In this document: piece after piece, positions 3,343 through 25,511 of the stretch
Layout: every line of letters begins with the position of its first letter
How positions within the stretch are numbered: position 1 is the first letter of the stretch
Source of the DNA: Pirellulales bacterium
GTDB taxonomy: Bacteria; Planctomycetota; Planctomycetia; Pirellulales; UBA1268
NCBI GenBank assembly: GCA_049695995.1
Contig: JBAVTF010000102.1
Span: 5,189-69,188, forward strand
DNA length: 64,000 nt
Direction: 5' to 3'
Notes under the pieces: generated by a model
The model's database searches: none
What the model saw: the letters and a program-made list of their open reading frames with translations, nothing else
What the model was told of the DNA's origin: nothing
Position numbers and translations under genes: made by a program

Positions 3343-4467
3343 ATGGATGCACTCCGAGTGGCAGCGATCGGCCGCACGGGCCGCGGCGACTACGGCCACG
3401 CGATCGACGAGCTGTGGCGGGCCCTGCCGGGCGTCGAGCTCGTGGCGATCGCCGACGAGTCGCCCGAGGGACTCGCGAAGGCAGTCGCCCGCAATGGCCT
3501 CGACGCCACGAAGCCAGGCGTGGCCTTCACCGACTGGCGGAAGATGCTCGCGGAAGCAAAGCCCGACATCGTCGCGATCTGCATGCGGCAGCTCGATTGC
3601 CATGCCGAAATGGCGATCGCCGCGGCGGAGGCCGGCGCGAAGGGCATCTTCATGGAGAAGCCATTCGTTCGCACGCTGGCCGAGGCCGATGCTGTGATCG
3701 CCGCCTGCCGCAAGACCGGGGCGAAGCTGTCGCTGGCGTTCGTCAACCGCCATTCGCCGAGCTACCTCGCCGCCCGCGATCTCATCGAACAGGGGCGAAT
3801 CGGCACCGTTTTGGAGCTGCGCGGCCGAGGCAAGGAAGACCGTCGCGGTGGCGGCGAGGATCTCTGGGTGCTCGGCTGCCACGTGCTCGACATGATGGCG
3901 GATCTCGGCGGTAGTCCGGCGTGGTGCATGGCGAGCGTCACGCAGGCGGGCCGGCCGATCACGAAGTCCGATGCCGTCGCCGGCCCCGAGGAGCTCGGGC
4001 TGATCGCCGGCGATGCGGTGAGTGCGATGTTCGGTCTGGCCGACGGGCCGACGGGGTATTTTGCGAGCATGCGCGAGGCGGGGGCGAAGCAGCCGAATTT
4101 CGGGCTCACGGTCGTGGGCACGAAGGGAGCGATTCACATCCGTCCCGACTTCGTGCCACATGCTTACCTCCGCGAAGCGCCCCTCTGGAGAATCGACAAG
4201 GACTATCCGTGGAAGCCGATCGGCCCGGAGGGGCTCGATTCACCGCTGCCGGAGACGGACGTCGATCGCGCCGCAGAGCGGGCGGGCTGGGGGCGGCGGG
4301 CCGCCGTTGATCTGGTCGATGCGATCCTCGAAGACCGCGAACCGGAGACGGGCATGTATGCCGGCCGCACGACGGTGGAGATGACTGCGGCGGTATTCGC
4401 CTCGGCGATCACCGGCGCGAAGGTGGCGCTGCCGTTGGGAGAACGCACCAACCCCCTGGCGCCCTAG
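3343..4467 (+). CDS. Gfo/Idh/MocA-family NAD(P)-dependent oxidoreductase
   Basis: N-terminal Rossmann segment (LRVAAIGRTGRGDYGH...VELVAIAD), the EKP motif (IFMEKPF) and a C-terminal alpha/beta domain. 374 aa. Confidence 0.85.
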   Translation: MDALRVAAIGRTGRGDYGHAIDELWRALPGVELVAIADESPEGLAKAVARNGLDATKPGVAFTDWRKMLAEAKPDIVAICMRQLDCHAEMAIAAAEAGAKGIFMEKPFVRTLAEADAVIAACRKTGAKLSLAFVNRHSPSYLAARDLIEQGRIGTVLELRGRGKEDRRGGGEDLWVLGCHVLDMMADLGGSPAWCMASVTQAGRPITKSDAVAGPEELGLIAGDAVSAMFGLADGPTGYFASMREAGAKQPNFGLTVVGTKGAIHIRPDFVPHAYLREAPLWRIDKDYPWKPIGPEGLDSPLPETDVDRAAERAGWGRRAAVDLVDAILEDREPETGMYAGRTTVEMTAAVFASAITGAKVALPLGERTNPLAP

Positions 4468-5888: not shown

Positions 5889-8800
5889 GTGTACAACCAC
5901 GGCATGCTCGCCTTGCTTCCGCGCCGGCGTTCCACCGTCGCCAGCCTCGTTGTCAGCGTCGTCAGCGTCACTTGCCTCGGGCAGCAACTCGCTGCTCAGC
6001 AGGTGGTGCTTCCACCCGGGTTTGGCCCCCCCGCCGCACTCGGCACGCGACCGTCTCCCGCCTATGACGCCGCCTGCGCTGCGCTCTCAAGCGGCGCCAC
6101 GTCGCGGGCCCTCGACCTCGCTCGCAACGAATACAAGTCGTGCCTGCGAATCGGCGGCCAGCGCTGGATCGATTCGATCGCCGCGAGCGCGCTGATCGGT
6201 GAATGCCACTACGAACTTGGAGACCTGCGCGAAGCCGAGGCCGCCTATGCGGAAACGCTGCTGCTTGCCGCTGCCTACCCGCAGTGGCTGCTCGCCGTGC
6301 AGTTTCCCCAGCAGCAGCCGCGGGCCCGACAGCAGCCGCCGCAGGGCACCTGGGGCCGCAGCATGAGAAACACACGGCCCGCACAACTGCCTGATACGAT
6401 CGCGATTCGTCAGGCGGGCGCCGATGCCAAGCAGGTGCTGGAGCAAGGAGGCGTGCTCGTCGCGCCCTTCGACCAGTTGATCCGTCCCGCCGAGCTGATG
6501 CGGGCGACCGTGATCGCGATCTATCGGCAGTCCGAGATCCTCGGCCCGCTCGGGCGTGAAACACCGGCACTCGACCGCGTGGCCGCGGCGCTGGCGCAGC
6601 GGCCCGCGCAGCCGGCGCACTACGCCCAGTCGTGGATCGACATCGCACTCGGCACAGCGCTGTGGGCGCAGGGCAAGCCCGAGCAGGCCACGCCGCTGCT
6701 CACCCGCGGCCTCGTGATCGGTGACGGCCTCGACCATCAGCTCACGGCGTGGGGCTTGATCGTGCTCGGACGCATCGCCCTCGATGCCGGCCAGGCCGCA
6801 CAGGCCGCGACGTACTTCGAGGAGGCCACCTACGCCGCGGCCAACGAGGCAGACGGGCGTGCGCTCGAGGAGGCATTCGCGTACGTGCATGCCGCGCGTG
6901 CCGCCGCCGGCACCCGCGGCGTGCCCCCCTCGATCGCCGGTGCGATCACCTGGGCCGATCGCGACTGGCCAGTGCTGCACGAGCGGCTGGTGGCGATGCA
7001 GGCGGAGTGTCTCGCCACAGGCGGCGACGCCCGGGCGGCGGCGGCGGCCCTCAAGCAGATCGACGGCCGGCTGCTGCGGGCCGATCCGGGCCGCGGTCAG
7101 CTCGGGGCCGAGGTGGCCTACGCGCAGGCCATCCTCGGCTATGCCACGGCCGATGTGCGGGCGGGCGACACGGCCCTCGACGCCGCGATCGAGATCGCGC
7201 GGCCGCGCAGCCCACGGCTCTTTCAGGTGACGCGGCTCGTCGAGCTCGTGGTTCAGGGTTCCGGCAACCTATCCGACCGGCAGATCGACGCGTTGTTCGC
7301 CGACCTGCTCGCGCCGCCGGCGGACCGCGACTTCACGGCCAAGCCGCTCGACACGCTCGCCGTGATCTCGAGTGATCGGCACGCCGCCTTCGAAACCTGG
7401 CTCGCCGTCGCCACGCGCCGCGACTCCGATCGGGCCTTCGAGGCGGCCGAGGCGCTGGTCCGCGACCGCTGGCTTTCGGCGCGGCCGCTCGGAGGCCGGC
7501 GGCTCGCGATCGATCGGCTGCTTGCGGCCGATCCAGCGGTGCTCGAGCCCACCGCTGCGGCCCGCCGCGCGGCGCTCCTCGGGAATCGCCGCGACCTCGG
7601 CGCCACGCTCGATGCATTCGCCCTGCTCCGCGGCCGGCTCGCCGCTGACCTGCTGGCGGCCAAGCAGGCGCCCGCCGAGAAGCAGCTGGCCGGCAGCGAC
7701 GACGACTGGGCGAAGTATCAGGCACTGGCCGCCACGCGCACGGCGTTCGTCGCCGCGCTCTCTGCGGGCCGCGAGGCCACGGCGATCGATTTTCCACCGC
7801 TCACGCCGACGGCCGAGATTCGCACGCGCCTCGCCCCGAAGCAGCTCATCCTGTCGTTTCGCTGGACCCGCACAGGCCTGACGGCCGCGCTCGAATCCCG
7901 CGATCGCCAGGCGACCTGGGAGGTGCGGCAGGCGGCCGGCATTCCGGTTGAGGTCGCGCAGCTGGCGAAGTCGCTGTGCCTGTTCGACCCCGATGCGGCG
8001 GTCTCCACCGACAAGCTCGTGGCGGGCGGCTGGCGCGACTCGGCCGCGCAACTCGAGCGGATGCTGTTCGAGAACTCCCGCGTCACGCTCGCCGAGGGCG
8101 TCGACGAGCTCGTGATCGTGCCCGATGGCTGGCTGTGGTACGTGCCGTTCGAGCTGTTGCCGATCGCGTCGGGCAAGGGCGACGCGGGCCCCACGTTGCT
8201 CCGCGATGTCTGCCGTGTGCGGTATGCCCCCACGCGCAGCCTCGCCGTGGCACGGCTGCCGGCCGCGGCAGGCACGGGCCCGGTCGGCATTCACGTCGGC
8301 CGACTTGCCCGCGGCCCGAAAGCGACCAGCGAGGAGACGCTCGACCGTCTCACGCAGGGGGTCGATCGGGCGGTGCCGCTGCCGCTGCCCGAGAAACCTC
8401 CAGCGCCGCTCGTGGCCTCAGTGTTCGACGGCCTCGCCGTGCTCGATGATCTCGGCATGCTGGGCCCATCTCCCGCGGCATCACTCGTGCCCGGTGCGTC
8501 GGGCCGGGGCGGCATTCCGCTGGCCGACTGGCTCGCGCCGCCGCAGAAGCGGCCGGGCTTCGTGCTCTTACCGGGGATGCAGTCGGCATTCGCGCGGGGC
8601 CTGGAGAAGGGCAGCCTGCCGCCGCGTCCAGGCGACGATCTCTTCATGCCGGCCATCGATCTGCTCGCGGCCGGCGCCCACACGGCCGTGCTCGCCCGGT
8701 GGCGAGTCGGGGGCCGCACCACGACCGACCTCATGCTCGAGTTTCTGCGGGATGCGACGGTCACCGCCGCGGATGCGCCGCCGCCTCCGGCATCGGCGAG

Positions 8801-8992: not shown

Positions 8993-9820
8993 ATGGATGA
9001 TGCCTTGTTGCCCACGAGCCCGTCTGGAGTGGCCCTGCTTGCCGTCGCGTCGGCGGTGGCGGGCGCGGTGAATTCCGTTGCCGGCGGCGGCACCATCCTC
9101 ACGTTTCCGGTGCTTGCGGCGATTCTGCCCCCCGATCCTGGCCGCATGGTCGTGGCCAATGCGACGAGCACGATCGGCCTCTGGCCCGCCTCGGCCGTGG
9201 CAGCGTGGGCCTATCGCGGCGAGCGAACGCACCAACCGGCCTGGGTGCGGTGGATGATCCTGCCGAGCGTAGCGGGCGCAATCGTGGGCACGCTGCTTGT
9301 GCTGCGGCTGCCCCCCGCATGGTTCGACGCGGCCGTGCCGTGGCTGATCCTCACGGCTGCGATCTTGTTCAGCGTGCAGCCCCGCGTAGGCCAATCACTC
9401 CGCAACGGGCAGCCCGTTGCAGCGCAACGGGCCTACACGACGCAACGGCTCCTGCCCGCCTGCCTGTTGCAGTTCGCGGTGGCGATCTACGGCGGCTATT
9501 TCGGAGCCGGCATCGGCATTCTCATGCTCGCCGTGCTCGGCCTGCTCGGACTCGGCGATATCCACAAGCTCAACGGCGTGAAGAACGTGCTCGGCACGGC
9601 GATCAACGGTGTCGCGGCGGCCACGTTTGCCGCCGGCTCGCTCAGCGGGGCCCACGACGTGTCGTGGCCACTGGCAGCGGTGATGGCCGGGGCGGCGATG
9701 GCGGGCAGTCTGTCGGCATCGCTGGTCGCCCGGCGGCTGCCAGCAGCCCGGGTGCGGCGGTTCGTGGCCATCCTCGGATTCGCCCTGGCGGCCTACTATC
9801 TGTGGCGGCATTTCTCATAG
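8993..9820 (+). CDS. TauE/SafE-family (DUF81) anion exporter
   Basis: The N-terminal motif AGAVNSVAGGGTILTFPVL is repeated in the second half (GGYFGAGIGILMLAVLG). Roughly 8 hydrophobic segments. Confidence 0.85.
   Translation: MDDALLPTSPSGVALLAVASAVAGAVNSVAGGGTILTFPVLAAILPPDPGRMVVANATSTIGLWPASAVAAWAYRGERTHQPAWVRWMILPSVAGAIVGTLLVLRLPPAWFDAAVPWLILTAAILFSVQPRVGQSLRNGQPVAAQRAYTTQRLLPACLLQFAVAIYGGYFGAGIGILMLAVLGLLGLGDIHKLNGVKNVLGTAINGVAAATFAAGSLSGAHDVSWPLAAVMAGAAMAGSLSASLVARRLPAARVRRFVAILGFALAAYYLWRHFS
9386..9436 (+). repeat. 51-nt GTAGGC...GCCTAC palindromic element inside the TauE/SafE CDS, in frame
   Basis: GTAGGCCAATCACTCCGCAACGGGCAGCCCGTTGCAGCGCAACGGGCCTAC has the same termini and core (GGGCAGCCCGTTGC) as the intergenic copies at 14103-14153 and 25414-25465. 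Confidence 0.75.
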
Positions 9821-13394: not shown

Positions 13395-13451
13395 GGGCAT
13401 GTCACGCCGTGACATGCTGCCCTTATTCCGGTCACGGCGTGACCGGGCTAC
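13395..13451. repeat. composite palindromic element (two GTCACGSCGTGAC hairpins)
   Basis: GGGCATGTCACGCCGTGACATGCTGCCC plus CCGGTCACGGCGTGACCGGGCTAC. The 3' half is near-identical to 23369-23393. Lies between convergent genes. Confidence 0.7.
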
Positions 13452-14102: not shown

Positions 14103-14153
14103 GTAGGCCCGTCACTCCGTGACGGGCAGCCCGTTGCGGAGCAACGAGCCTAC
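14103..14153 (+). repeat. 51-nt GTAGGC...GCCTAC palindromic element (intergenic reference copy)
   Basis: GTAGGCCCGTCACTCCGTGACGGGCAGCCCGTTGCGGAGCAACGAGCCTAC. It carries two internal hairpins (CCCGTCAC/GTGACGGG and CGTTGC/GCAACG) and 6-nt terminal inverted repeats. Confidence 0.8.
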
Positions 14154-20984: not shown

Positions 20985-21659
20985 ATGGCTGCGACGTCGC
21001 GCGCGAGTGAGGCCTTGCCACGGGAACCACACGGGTGGTATCCGACGGTCGTGAAGCGCGGATGCGACCTCATCGTGGCGGCTGCGCTGGTCGTCCTGCT
21101 CGCGCCGCTGATGGCGGCGGTTGCGCTGGCCGTGCGGCTCGTGCTCGGGCGGCCGGTCTTCCATCGCGACATGCGGGCCGGGCTCCACGGAAAACCTTTC
21201 GAGATCGTGAAGTTTCGGTCGATGGCCGAGCGGGTGGACGACGCCGGTCGGCTCTTGCCCGACGAACAGCGGCTCGGACTCTTCGGCCGGTGCCTGCGGG
21301 CCACGAGCCTCGACGAACTGCCGCAGCTGGTGAGCGTGGTACGCGGCGAGATGAGCCTGGTGGGGCCGCGTCCTCTCCCACTTCGCTATGTTGCCAGATA
21401 TTCGCCCCGACAGGCCACGCGGCTGCTCGTCCGGCCGGGACTCACCGGCTGGGCCCAGATTCATGGCCGAAACGCCCTCGACTGGGGCCCGAGGCTGGAA
21501 TATGACGCCCGCTACGTGGAAATTCTCGGGCGGTGGCATGCCCCGCTGGCCGATTGCTGGATCATTGTGGTCACCCTGCTCCAATTGATCGTTCAGGCCG
21601 TCACCGGCCGCGGCGTGGCGGCGCCCGGCTCGGCCACGATGCAAGAGTTTCAACCGTGA
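20985..21659 (+). CDS. small monotopic phosphoglycosyl transferase (bacterial sugar transferase, PglC/WbaP C-terminal type)
   Basis: KRGCDLIVAAALVVLLAPLMAAVALAV re-entrant helix, then KFRSM, DELPQLVSVVRGEMSLVGPRP and RPGLTGWAQIHGRN. Confidence 0.9.
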   Translation: MAATSRASEALPREPHGWYPTVVKRGCDLIVAAALVVLLAPLMAAVALAVRLVLGRPVFHRDMRAGLHGKPFEIVKFRSMAERVDDAGRLLPDEQRLGLFGRCLRATSLDELPQLVSVVRGEMSLVGPRPLPLRYVARYSPRQATRLLVRPGLTGWAQIHGRNALDWGPRLEYDARYVEILGRWHAPLADCWIIVVTLLQLIVQAVTGRGVAAPGSATMQEFQP

Positions 21660-21919
21660 GTCCGTCCGACGCCGTCGCCGACGCCATCCGCACCGTGCTT
21701 CGCGAGACCGGCCGCAGCCGCGATGCGATCGAGCCGCAGCAGCTGCTGGCCGCCGATCTCGGTCTCGACTCGCTCGACCTCGCGCAAGCGATCGTGCTCC
21801 TCGAGCGATCGCTCGGCGTCGATCCATTCCGCGACTGGTCCGCCGCCGCGCCGCGGCCGGCCGTCCGCACCGTCTCCGATCTCGTTGCCATCTACACGAC
21901 AGCCCTCGCCTCACCCTGA
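21656..21919 (+). CDS. acyl carrier protein
   Basis: 87 aa with the phosphopantetheine attachment motif LGLDSLDLAQ. The GTG start overlaps the upstream stop (GTGA). Confidence 0.8.
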   Translation: MSPSDAVADAIRTVLRETGRSRDAIEPQQLLAADLGLDSLDLAQAIVLLERSLGVDPFRDWSAAAPRPAVRTVSDLVAIYTTALASP

Positions 21920-23294: not shown

Positions 23295-23315
23295 GCCGCA
23301 TGCCCATCACTCCCC

Positions 23316-23393
23316 GTAGGCCCGTCACGCCGCGTGGGTCCGTCACGCGGTGACGGACATCCCCGTTTACCGGTCACGGCGTGACCGGGCTAC
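23316..23393. repeat. composite palindromic element (GTAGGC half-element plus CCGGTCACGGCGTGACCGGGCTAC module)
   Basis: GTAGGCCCGTCACGCCGCGTGGGTCCGTCACGCGGTGACGGAC...CCGGTCACGGCGTGACCGGGCTAC. Sits between the ligase stop and the SDR start. Confidence 0.7.
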
Positions 23394-23397
23394 CGTC

Positions 23398-24180
23398 ATG
23401 CCCACGACCATCATCTCCGGCGGCTCCCGCGGGCTTGGGCTCGCCCTCGTGGAGCGGCTGCTTGCCCGCGGCGATACGGTCGCCACGTTCTCCCGCGCGG
23501 GATCTCCGGCACTCGATGCCCTCGCCGCGGCCCACGCCGACCGGCTGTTCACCGCTCGCGTCAATGCCGCCGACAGTGCCGCGATTCGCGGCTTCGTCGA
23601 GCAGGCTACGACGCGGTTCGGCCGCATCGACCACTGCATCGCGAATGCGGCGATCGCCCACGAGGGCGTGCTGGCGGTCACGAGCGACGCGGCGATCGAC
23701 GACATGCTCGCGATCAACCTCAAGGGCTCGATCGTGCTCGTTCGCGAATGTGTCCGCCAGATGCTCGTGCAGGCGAGCCCGTCGCACCCCGGAGGGCCGT
23801 CACGCCGTGACGGGCAGTCCGTTGCGGAGCAACCGACCGACAACCTGTCGATCACGGTCATCTCCTCGGTGGTCGCCTCCCGGGGCTCGCCGGGCCTCGC
23901 GGTCTACGCGGCCACGAAGGCGGGGCTCGAGGGCTTTGCCCGCAACCTCGCCCGCGAGTTGGGGCCGCGGGGCATCCGCGTCAACGCCGTAGCGCCGGGG
24001 TTTCTGGAGACGGAACTCTCGGCCTCGCTGTCCCCGGAAAACCGCAGTCGCATCGCCCGCCGCACGGCGCTCGGCCGCCTCGGCCGGCCGGCCGACATCG
24101 TGGGCGCGGTGGAGTTTCTGATGAGTCCGGCGGCGGCGTTCATCACGGGCCAGGTGCTCGCGATCGACGGCGGGGCCTGA
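23398..24180 (+). CDS. short-chain dehydrogenase/reductase (FabG-like 3-oxoacyl reductase) carrying an internal repeat-derived insert
   Basis: TIISGGSRGLGLAL cofactor motif, NAAI, and catalytic VYAATKAGLEGF. Start set at the ATG at 23398, downstream of the repeat element. Confidence 0.8.
   Translation: MPTTIISGGSRGLGLALVERLLARGDTVATFSRAGSPALDALAAAHADRLFTARVNAADSAAIRGFVEQATTRFGRIDHCIANAAIAHEGVLAVTSDAAIDDMLAINLKGSIVLVRECVRQMLVQASPSHPGGPSRRDGQSVAEQPTDNLSITVISSVVASRGSPGLAVYAATKAGLEGFARNLARELGPRGIRVNAVAPGFLETELSASLSPENRSRIARRTALGRLGRPADIVGAVEFLMSPAAAFITGQVLAIDGGA
23791..23841 (+). repeat. 51-nt degenerate GTAGGC-family palindromic element inside the SDR CDS, in frame
   Basis: GGAGGGCCGTCACGCCGTGACGGGCAGTCCGTTGCGGAGCAACCGACCGAC has the same core as 14103-14153, with diverged termini. 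Confidence 0.7.
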
Positions 24181-24186
24181 TGTGCA

Positions 24187-24205
24187 CCGCACACGGAGTG
24201 TGCGG
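24187..24205. terminator. GC-rich hairpin between convergent genes
   Basis: CCGCACAC-GGA-GTGTGCGG. No U-tract follows, so the terminator role is tentative. Confidence 0.3.
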
Positions 24206-24255
24206 ACTACGGTTGCATGGGCGCACCCTCGCCCGCCGGTATGATCTCCGTGGAT

Positions 24256-24276
24256 GTGCAGACTGGCAGTCTGCAC
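24256..24276. repeat. perfect 21-nt palindrome GTGCAGACTGGCAGTCTGCAC
   Basis: 10+1+10 palindrome read directly, 10 nt downstream of the stop of the minus-strand epimerase gene. Confidence 0.5.
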
Positions 24277-24285
24277 ACCGCCCGC

Positions 24286-25413: not shown

Positions 25414-25465
25414 CACCTAGTCTGTAGGCCCCGTTGCTCCGCAACGGGCTGCCCACCACGGAGTG
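25414..25465 (-). repeat. 52-nt GTAGGC...GCCTAC palindromic element (inverted orientation)
   Basis: The reverse complement, GTAGGCCCGTCACTCCGTGGTGGGCAGCCCGTTGCGGAGCAACGGGGCCTAC, is near-identical to 14103-14153. Lies in a divergent promoter region. Confidence 0.8.
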
Positions 25466-25511
25466 ACGGGCCTACGGCCACGCTCGCAACGTACACTGGT
25501 TTCCTTCCGCC

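Follow-up and report, generated by a model that had tools for sequence, protein, structure and literature searches.

A REP-type palindromic repeat in the αE-β5 loop of a planctomycete FabG/MupS-type reductase

The SDR gene and its surroundings

The DNA analysed here, a 64,000-nt stretch of a Pirellulales contig that we refer to as the window, contains a reductase gene in which a copy of a dispersed repeat is read in frame. The features of this gene that bear on the insert are:

23398–24180, forward strand: host SDR gene, an intact classical SDR of 260 aa and FabG/MupS-type 3-oxoacyl-ACP reductase
23770–23847, forward strand: enlarged αE-β5 loop, residues 125–150
23773–23790, forward strand: GCGAGCCCGTCGCACCCC, upstream extra segment encoding ASPSHP, extra relative to 240-aa orthologs
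23791–23841, forward strand: in-frame SDR copy of the repeat, matching the consensus at 44 of 51 positions and encoding residues 132–148, GGPSRRDGQSVAEQPTD

The gene is the only long ORF with SDR homology at this locus, and its close orthologs all start with MPTT(L/I)ISGG. The protein matches Pfam adh_short_C2 (E = 4e-48), and its best solved relative is the 3-oxoacyl-ACP reductase MupS (4yxf, E = 3e-50; Foldseek TM-score 0.83, normalised to the target). It has the Gly-rich cofactor motif, NNAG-type motif, N-S-Y-K tetrad and Rossmann fold of classical SDRs, and the corresponding residues (SGGSRGLG at 7–14, ANAA at 82–85, N107, S157, Y170 and K174) are invariant in 40 orthologs. A PP-binding carrier protein (ACP) gene (21656–21919) and an AMP-ligase gene are located directly upstream. 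These two neighbors, and MupS as the best relative, point to an ACP-bound 3-oxoacyl compound as the putative substrate. The ACP, AMP-ligase and SDR genes are part of a conserved cluster that also contains genes for a NusG-like protein, a PglF-like dehydratase, a DegT aminotransferase, a GT4 glycosyltransferase, a Bac_transf sugar transferase, an epimerase (opposite strand) and a PglD-like acyltransferase, and that is a polysaccharide (N-acyl amino-sugar) cluster.

The region just upstream of the SDR gene differs among related loci, which we number L001 onwards. A HicA/HicB toxin-antitoxin pair is found there in L001 (4587–5077, between the AMP-ligase and SDR genes), L006 (324–814), L010 (244–734) and L090 (47–514), and HicA alone is found in L091 (76–294), the upstream end of which is cut. 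In the window this spacer contains nothing but REP-like sequences, and it is likewise short in L004 and in the contig encoding ortholog P0010.

The first-pass annotation had left room for the SDR gene being an unexpressed pseudogene. As long spurious ORFs are common in this high-GC window, the open frame of a disrupted or unexpressed gene could be accidental, but several observations speak against this. The dN/dS of the window gene is 0.10–0.17 against six orthologs, the catalytic and cofactor motifs are invariant, GC3 is 0.87–0.92 in a coding-type pattern on both sides of the insert, and synteny with the ACP and AMP-ligase genes is conserved. By these sequence criteria, purifying selection acts on the gene and its catalytic residues are preserved, and we reject the pseudogene reading as very improbable indeed.

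A dispersed 51-nt repeat with the anatomy of a REP doublet

Repeat finding and a consensus scan placed four copies of a repeat of ~51 nt in the window, and a 21-nt core of this repeat occurs four times where 0.11 occurrences are expected from shuffled sequence. Besides the SDR copy, the window contains three further copies and two other REP-like hairpins that lie next to the SDR gene:

9386–9436, forward strand: TauE copy, in a TauE/SafE-family membrane protein gene (8993–9820), sharing orientation and phase with the SDR copy
14103–14153, forward strand: near-canonical copy with one consensus mismatch, between long ORFs and read as intergenic
25425–25475, reverse strand: fourth copy, between the epimerase and PglD-like acyltransferase genes and read as intergenic
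23370–23393, reverse strand: second REP variant, the GTAG-tagged hairpin GTAGCCCGGTCACGCCGTGACCGG, ending 5 nt before the SDR start codon
24187–24210, reverse strand: third REP variant, the GTAG-tagged hairpin GTAGTCCGCACACTCCGTGTGCGG, beginning 7 nt past the SDR stop codon

At least three REP variants coexist in the window; the GTAGCCCGGTCACGCCGTGACCGG variant has a second copy at 13428–13451. The SDR gene is bracketed by GTAG-tagged hairpins (within 23295–23397 and 24181–24285).

The consensus of the 51-nt repeat, GTAGGCCCGTCACTCCGTGACGGGCAGCCCGTTGCGGAGCAACGGGCCTAC, consists of two inverted units separated by a 1-nt spacer, both of which are GTAG-tagged palindromes. Unit 1 is GTAG followed by GCCCGTCAC-TCC-GTGACGGGC, and unit 2 is the reverse complement of GTAG followed by GCCCGTTGC-TCC-GCAACGGGC. 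Each half, in the consensus and, apart from the mutated tags of the SDR copy, in the window copies, has the GTAG tag, a 9-bp stem and a TCC loop. The consensus is predicted to fold into a single 22-bp hairpin with a minimum free energy of -41.6 kcal/mol (shuffles, -18.3 ± 3.0), and the near-canonical copy at 14103–14153 reaches -34.7 kcal/mol. Copies of 51–60 nt exist, as the length of the spacer varies. A GTAG 5' of an imperfect palindrome, an inverted pair that forms one long hairpin, a high copy number at mostly extragenic positions, and filled and empty sites (described below) are properties of REPs and REPINs, and we conclude that the 51-nt repeat has the anatomy of a GTAG-tagged REP doublet (REPIN). 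At gathering thresholds, no Rfam family matched anywhere in the window.

The 51-mer has inverted termini (GTAGGCCCGT / ACGGGCCTAC), as a classical MITE would. We rejected this class because the flanks of 65 canonical copies contain no direct target-site duplication; the only regularity in these flanks is a symmetric pyrimidine...purine (Y...R) extension of the palindrome. A truncated unit is present within 16 nt upstream of 25 of 85 copies (29%), compared to a background of 3%.

The SDR copy had been described in the first-pass annotation as a second in-frame copy of the element found in the TauE gene, in the same orientation and phase, and the 44/51 match to the consensus at 23791–23841 bears this out. 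Counted from the ATG at 23398, it begins at an offset of 393 nt (131 codons), and it is codon-aligned in the ORF. The gene containing the TauE copy is a clear family member (Pfam E = 2e-40), the copy translates to VGQSLRNGQPVAAQRAY, and the insertion (…VGQSLRNGQPVAAQRAYTTQRLL…) has an orthologous copy at 4092–4142 of L044, from a Planctomycetaceae MAG (…SSLRDGQPVAEQRAYTTQRLL…). The TauE and SDR copies both begin at codon 132 of their own genes, by appearance a coincidence. The repeat unit is 17 codons long, and its consensus can be read without a stop only in forward frame 1 and reverse frame 3. The shared phase therefore carries little weight, a copy that persists in a gene having a prior of roughly 1-in-2 for this frame, and with stops in four of six frames we rejected phase-specific targeting as its explanation.

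Beyond the window, an exact 27-nt core of the repeat was found in 79 stretches in planctomycete MAGs of a species-representative genome collection. Most of these are in one MAG, CAMDDA01 (GCA_945890755.1), and the rest are in Planctomycetaceae and Pirellulales MAGs. In a blastn-short census, many copies were 100% identical to the consensus. This census is biased towards exact-core copies; in it, coding-like ORFs contain only seven of 85 distinct copies (four orthologous SDR copies, two orthologous TauE copies and one ambiguous C-terminal case), and the other 78 are located outside such ORFs. Clean intragenic targets therefore number only two among about 80 distinct copies.

The ambiguous case, at 7797–7847 of L023, was rejected as a third clean internal insertion because it lies at a C-terminal end and its ORF runs off the locus. 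There, a large repeat protein has the PEP-CTERM-like motif VPEPATLGLLLAGL, directly after which lies a copy in the opposite orientation, and the ORF continues through the element as its in-frame TGA is mutated to CGA. This element may have replaced or extended the C-terminus of the protein. Elsewhere, in L019 (2618–2773), a 37-nt unit derived from the REP, GCCCGTCACCCGTAGGCCTGTTGCTCCGCAACGGGCT, is repeated 4.2 times in tandem with 98% identity, and L020 and L031, where core matches follow one another at a close spacing of 36 nt, appear to contain similar but shorter arrays. Among the repeat-bearing MAGs (CAMDDA01 and CAYQCU01; L011–L089), the one richest in the repeat is labelled Candidatus Kuenenia stuttgartiensis, and another is labelled Bifidobacterium. 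These labels look doubtful, since the named relatives of the SDR are from Planctomycetaceae or Pirellulales MAGs.

Filled and empty alleles of a tolerant loop

A protein search recovered SDR orthologs of 240 to 282 aa. Orthologs P0002–P0006 (89–91% identical to the window protein) carry VGPSLRDGQSVAEQQTY at the same place, encoded by GTAGG...CCTAC, and at least six protein clusters (at 90% identity) contain the insert in frame. Orthologs P0007–P0010 (90–93% identical) are without the insert and have 240–244 aa. As orthologs of ~90% identity exist both with and without this segment, it is an insertion and not ancestral protein sequence. The close orthologs that lack it also speak against one refuting condition named in the first-pass annotation, conservation of the region in SDR orthologs from genomes without the repeat. 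The ortholog alignment also agrees with the earlier estimate of an insert of about 20 aa, the window protein having 260 aa and a net gain of 60 nt (20 codons) over the 240-aa form.

The polymorphism is also seen in the DNA. At 88–92% nucleotide identity, the SDR gene is filled in the window, L001, L004 and L008, and is empty in L003, L006 and L010. The empty allele of L010 reads CAGGCG-ACTGTAGCTTCG-TCGATC, and the other empty alleles are similar. The copies in L001, L004 and L008 keep the canonical GTAGG...CCTAC. The upstream extra segment in the window, GCGAGCCCGTCGCACCCC, matches GTAGGCCCGTCACTCCCC, a sequence found directly 5' of full copies elsewhere, at 13 of 18 positions when counted by hand, and is possibly an older or co-inserted truncated REP half. 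With this truncated unit included, the original insert may have been about 65–69 nt. The precise inserted length and the target are uncertain, as the window lineage is without an exactly matching empty site and the loop evolves by indels.

The loop is hypervariable, and in many orthologs it is rich in Pro, Ser and Ala. The resemblance to the repeat could thus be a coincidence of a native low-complexity linker. To this we assign only a vanishing probability, as the window copy matches the consensus at 44 of 51 nt and the orthologous copies, which have intact GTAG...CTAC ends, at 47–48 of 51 nt, and zero such matches are expected by chance. Based on the chance expectation, the alignment of filled alleles and the consensus match, we reject chance resemblance; the SDR segment is a member of the repeat family.

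The first-pass annotation had taken the diverged termini of the insertion as a sign of an older event, and this view gains support: in the window copy neither GTAG tag is intact (the 5' one reads GGAG, and the one on the opposite strand GTCG), and orthologs at dS 0.24–0.43 have the insertion as well, from which we conclude that it is not recent. Filled and empty alleles do not form separate groups in a neighbor-joining tree but are interleaved; with a single gain, later loss or recombination must also have taken place. Furthermore, the copies in L001, L004 and L008 differ mutually at only 0–1 of 51 nt, while their flanks differ at about 5–6 per 51 nt, and only 0.5–1.8% of flanking 51-nt windows are as similar as these inserts.

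Both observations would fit several independent, recent insertions of one sub-variant into a site-specific hot spot in place of one old insertion. The bases T28 and A46, which depart from the consensus, form a compensated pair in the second stem and are common to all four filled alleles, mark a sub-variant that is found elsewhere too, in L066 and L020. In L001 a further REP half occupies this insertion site, and the empty site of L010, which reads ACTGTAGCT, contains GTAG. Against this, all four filled alleles have the same orientation and an identical 3' junction, three of the four share the 5' flank CACCCC, and two clean intragenic targets among ~80 distinct copies speak against a strong preference for the SDR gene. 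We consider repeated insertion unlikely. The near-identity of the three inserts possibly reflects recent spread by recombination, homogenisation, or a nucleotide-level constraint on the hairpin.

In the protein, the first-pass annotation had placed the insert at the point where FabG-type SDRs make a short turn ahead of the IxxISS strand, and alignment with solved relatives puts it there. Query residues 3–124 align with MupS 23–142 and residues 151–259 with MupS 147–254, so that 26 query residues (125–150) face four in MupS (143–146); the corresponding numbers for the FabG structures are 28 and 6. The AlphaFold model (pLDDT 79) has a helix at 97–126, coil at 127–149 and a strand at 150–159, with pLDDT below 50 for residues 129–146. 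For P0008, an ortholog lacking the insert, the modelled core is the same, and a turn of 5 residues replaces the coil. The insert is thus predicted to form a disordered or coil segment of ~20 residues within the loop.

A position close to the substrate or cofactor cleft, also proposed in the first-pass annotation, is only partly borne out. The turn leads into the N-terminal end of β5, which from Rossmann-fold topology we take to be the edge of the sheet that faces away from the NADP site of the same subunit, and proximity to the cofactor is not supported. Residues 152–259 of the query align with FabG 133–240, placing S157, Y170 and K174 on S138, Y151 and K155, and R191 on R172; by this alignment, the loop of E. 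coli FabG that is displaced is K127–R132, which includes Arg129. Arg129, together with Arg172, has been reported to contribute to ACP docking in FabG (PMC8007833). The Arg172 equivalent, R191, is invariant among the orthologs.

The αE-β5 loop accepts many unrelated sequences. Among 114 orthologs (at least 68% identical), it ranges from 6 to 49 residues. The longest loop belongs to P0004 (282 aa; L001 5560–5693), where the extra REP half and SHP/VAP microduplications upstream of the copy produce 49 residues; repeat units can therefore build up within a coding loop, in a way that resembles their clusters in intergenic DNA. In L090 (891–911) and L091 (701–721), which represent a distant lineage, the loop contains a different palindromic repeat, CCCTCTGGGAGAGGGTGGCCGAAGGCCGGGTGAGGG, encoding PLGEGGRRPGEG. 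A 30-nt core of this second repeat occurs on at least 120 metagenome contigs from soil and freshwater (L092–L211), which are unrelated and only one of which encodes an SDR ortholog; the element is dispersed very widely. The same SDR loop has thus received two distinct dispersed palindromic repeats, the 51-mer in the window and the CCCTCTGGGAGAGGGTGGCCGAAGGCCGGGTGAGGG repeat in L090 and L091.

Since the insert loop aligns with the Arg129 loop, the insert could have been exapted, with its peptide or its DNA or mRNA hairpin functional (in ACP docking, translation or mRNA stability) and kept by selection. The in-frame retention of the insert in at least six clusters and its near-invariance in L001, L004 and L008 would be explained by such a function, and the latter counts against pure neutrality, as in these three relatives the nucleotide sequence of the insert is conserved much more strongly than that of the flanks. 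However, equally close orthologs without the insert are intact genes under the same constraint, and the loop tolerates unrelated content. In addition, the window copy is visibly eroded. It has 7 mismatches to the consensus and differs from the orthologous copies at 5–6 nt, corresponding to 4–5 non-synonymous codon changes and one synonymous change; its minimum free energy (-21.3 kcal/mol) is close to that of its own shuffles (-19.1 ± 3.2), the long hairpin being lost; and P0006 has a 3-codon deletion inside the insert. With the low-confidence coil and the mutated tags, these results do not bear out the description of the insert as domesticated. The pattern of changes in the window copy reads as the decay of an immobilised passenger, and we regard exaptation as quite improbable.

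Origin of the insert and comparison with known systems

We find it very probable that the SDR segment is a fossil REP/REPIN-type insertion in a tolerant loop, now largely a neutral passenger at the protein level. A small non-autonomous mobile element of this type would have inserted into the DNA for the surface turn αE-β5 of an ACP-dependent ketoreductase, probably mobilised by a RAYT-type HUH transposase via single-stranded DNA. Two crude regex scans for the RAYT-like HUH...Y..NP motif in six-frame translations of the window and ~0.6 Mb of related loci found none, a result that falls short of proving absence. The resulting loop of ~20 residues, predicted to be disordered, would leave the Rossmann core and catalytic tetrad untouched. 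We propose that the insertion survived because its length was a multiple of three (51 nt, possibly plus the truncated half unit), because it landed in one of only two stop-free frames, and because the αE-β5 turn tolerates almost any content. In the window lineage, the subsequent loss of both GTAG tags and of the hairpin probably left the copy immobile.

A bolder reading draws on the near-invariance of the insert in L001, L004 and L008 and on the interleaving of filled and empty alleles. According to it, the αE-β5 loop would be a recurrent acceptor of unrelated palindromic repeats, and the REP segment would be functional as a DNA or RNA hairpin or as an ACP-specificity loop. We give this reading little credence; if it were true, mobile hairpins would supply enzymes that depend on carrier proteins with adaptive diversity in their loops. 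As a fossil insertion, the SDR case provides a natural experiment in which close relatives have one and the same enzyme with no insert, an intact hairpin, a decayed hairpin or a doubled one, and it is a direct demonstration of selfish palindromic DNA lengthening a protein loop without harm to the gene. There is also a use in annotation, as VGPSLRDGQPVAEQRAY or PLGEGGRRPGEG peptides in planctomycete proteins mark repeat insertions and not conserved motifs.

As an enzyme, the window SDR shares its fold, cofactor motif and catalytic residues with MupS and FabG (4yxf, 1i01, 1q7b), and its gene has an ACP gene as a neighbor. It differs in the αE-β5 loop, which has 26 residues where MupS has 4 and FabG 6.

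Among known repeats, close counterparts are the GTAG-tagged REPs described by Di Nocera et al. 2013 (PMC3733652), which are mostly extragenic, a minority lying entirely within the ORFs of known proteins. Intragenic REP dimers encoding 20–30 aa have been reported for the Planctomycetes-Verrucomicrobia-Chlamydiae (PVC) superphylum, the largest number of intragenic GTAG repeats being in Opitutus terrae, and the main text of that paper names no planctomycete genera (PMC3733652). The 51-nt family shares with these REPs the GTAG tag with its palindrome, the inverted pairing and the mostly extragenic location. It differs in that neither the family nor its SDR and TauE targets could be assigned to any family listed in PMC3733652, and in that natural filled and empty alleles of one gene are available here, with an in-gene copy that is visibly decaying.

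REPINs consist of two inverted REPs with a short spacer that form one hairpin and are mobilised by RAYTs (Bertels & Rainey 2011, PMC3116915; PMC3337134); one criterion for them is that the genome also encodes a cognate RAYT, a Y1 HUH transposase whose gene usually lies between REPs. Many near-identical copies per genome and spacer-dependent variation in length are common to REPINs and the present family. In contrast to REPINs, which are described as extragenic, the SDR copy is by its reading frame translated.

The Rickettsia palindromic elements (RPEs) are elements of about 100–150 bp that are frequently intragenic and lie in frame, at fold-compatible positions, in functional Rickettsia genes (Ogata et al. 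2000, as summarised in PMC10969869 and PMC3733652). The likeness lies in a palindromic repeat that is read in frame and adds a peptide where the fold allows it; the difference lies in the sequence families, which appear unrelated, in the 51-nt unit and in clean intragenic location for only ~2 of ~80 distinct copies. By analogy, the 51-nt element appears to work like an RPE without being a member of that class. As intragenic REPs and Rickettsia RPEs have already been described, the conceptual gain is small, and we present the SDR insertion as a clear example of a published phenomenon and not as a new one.
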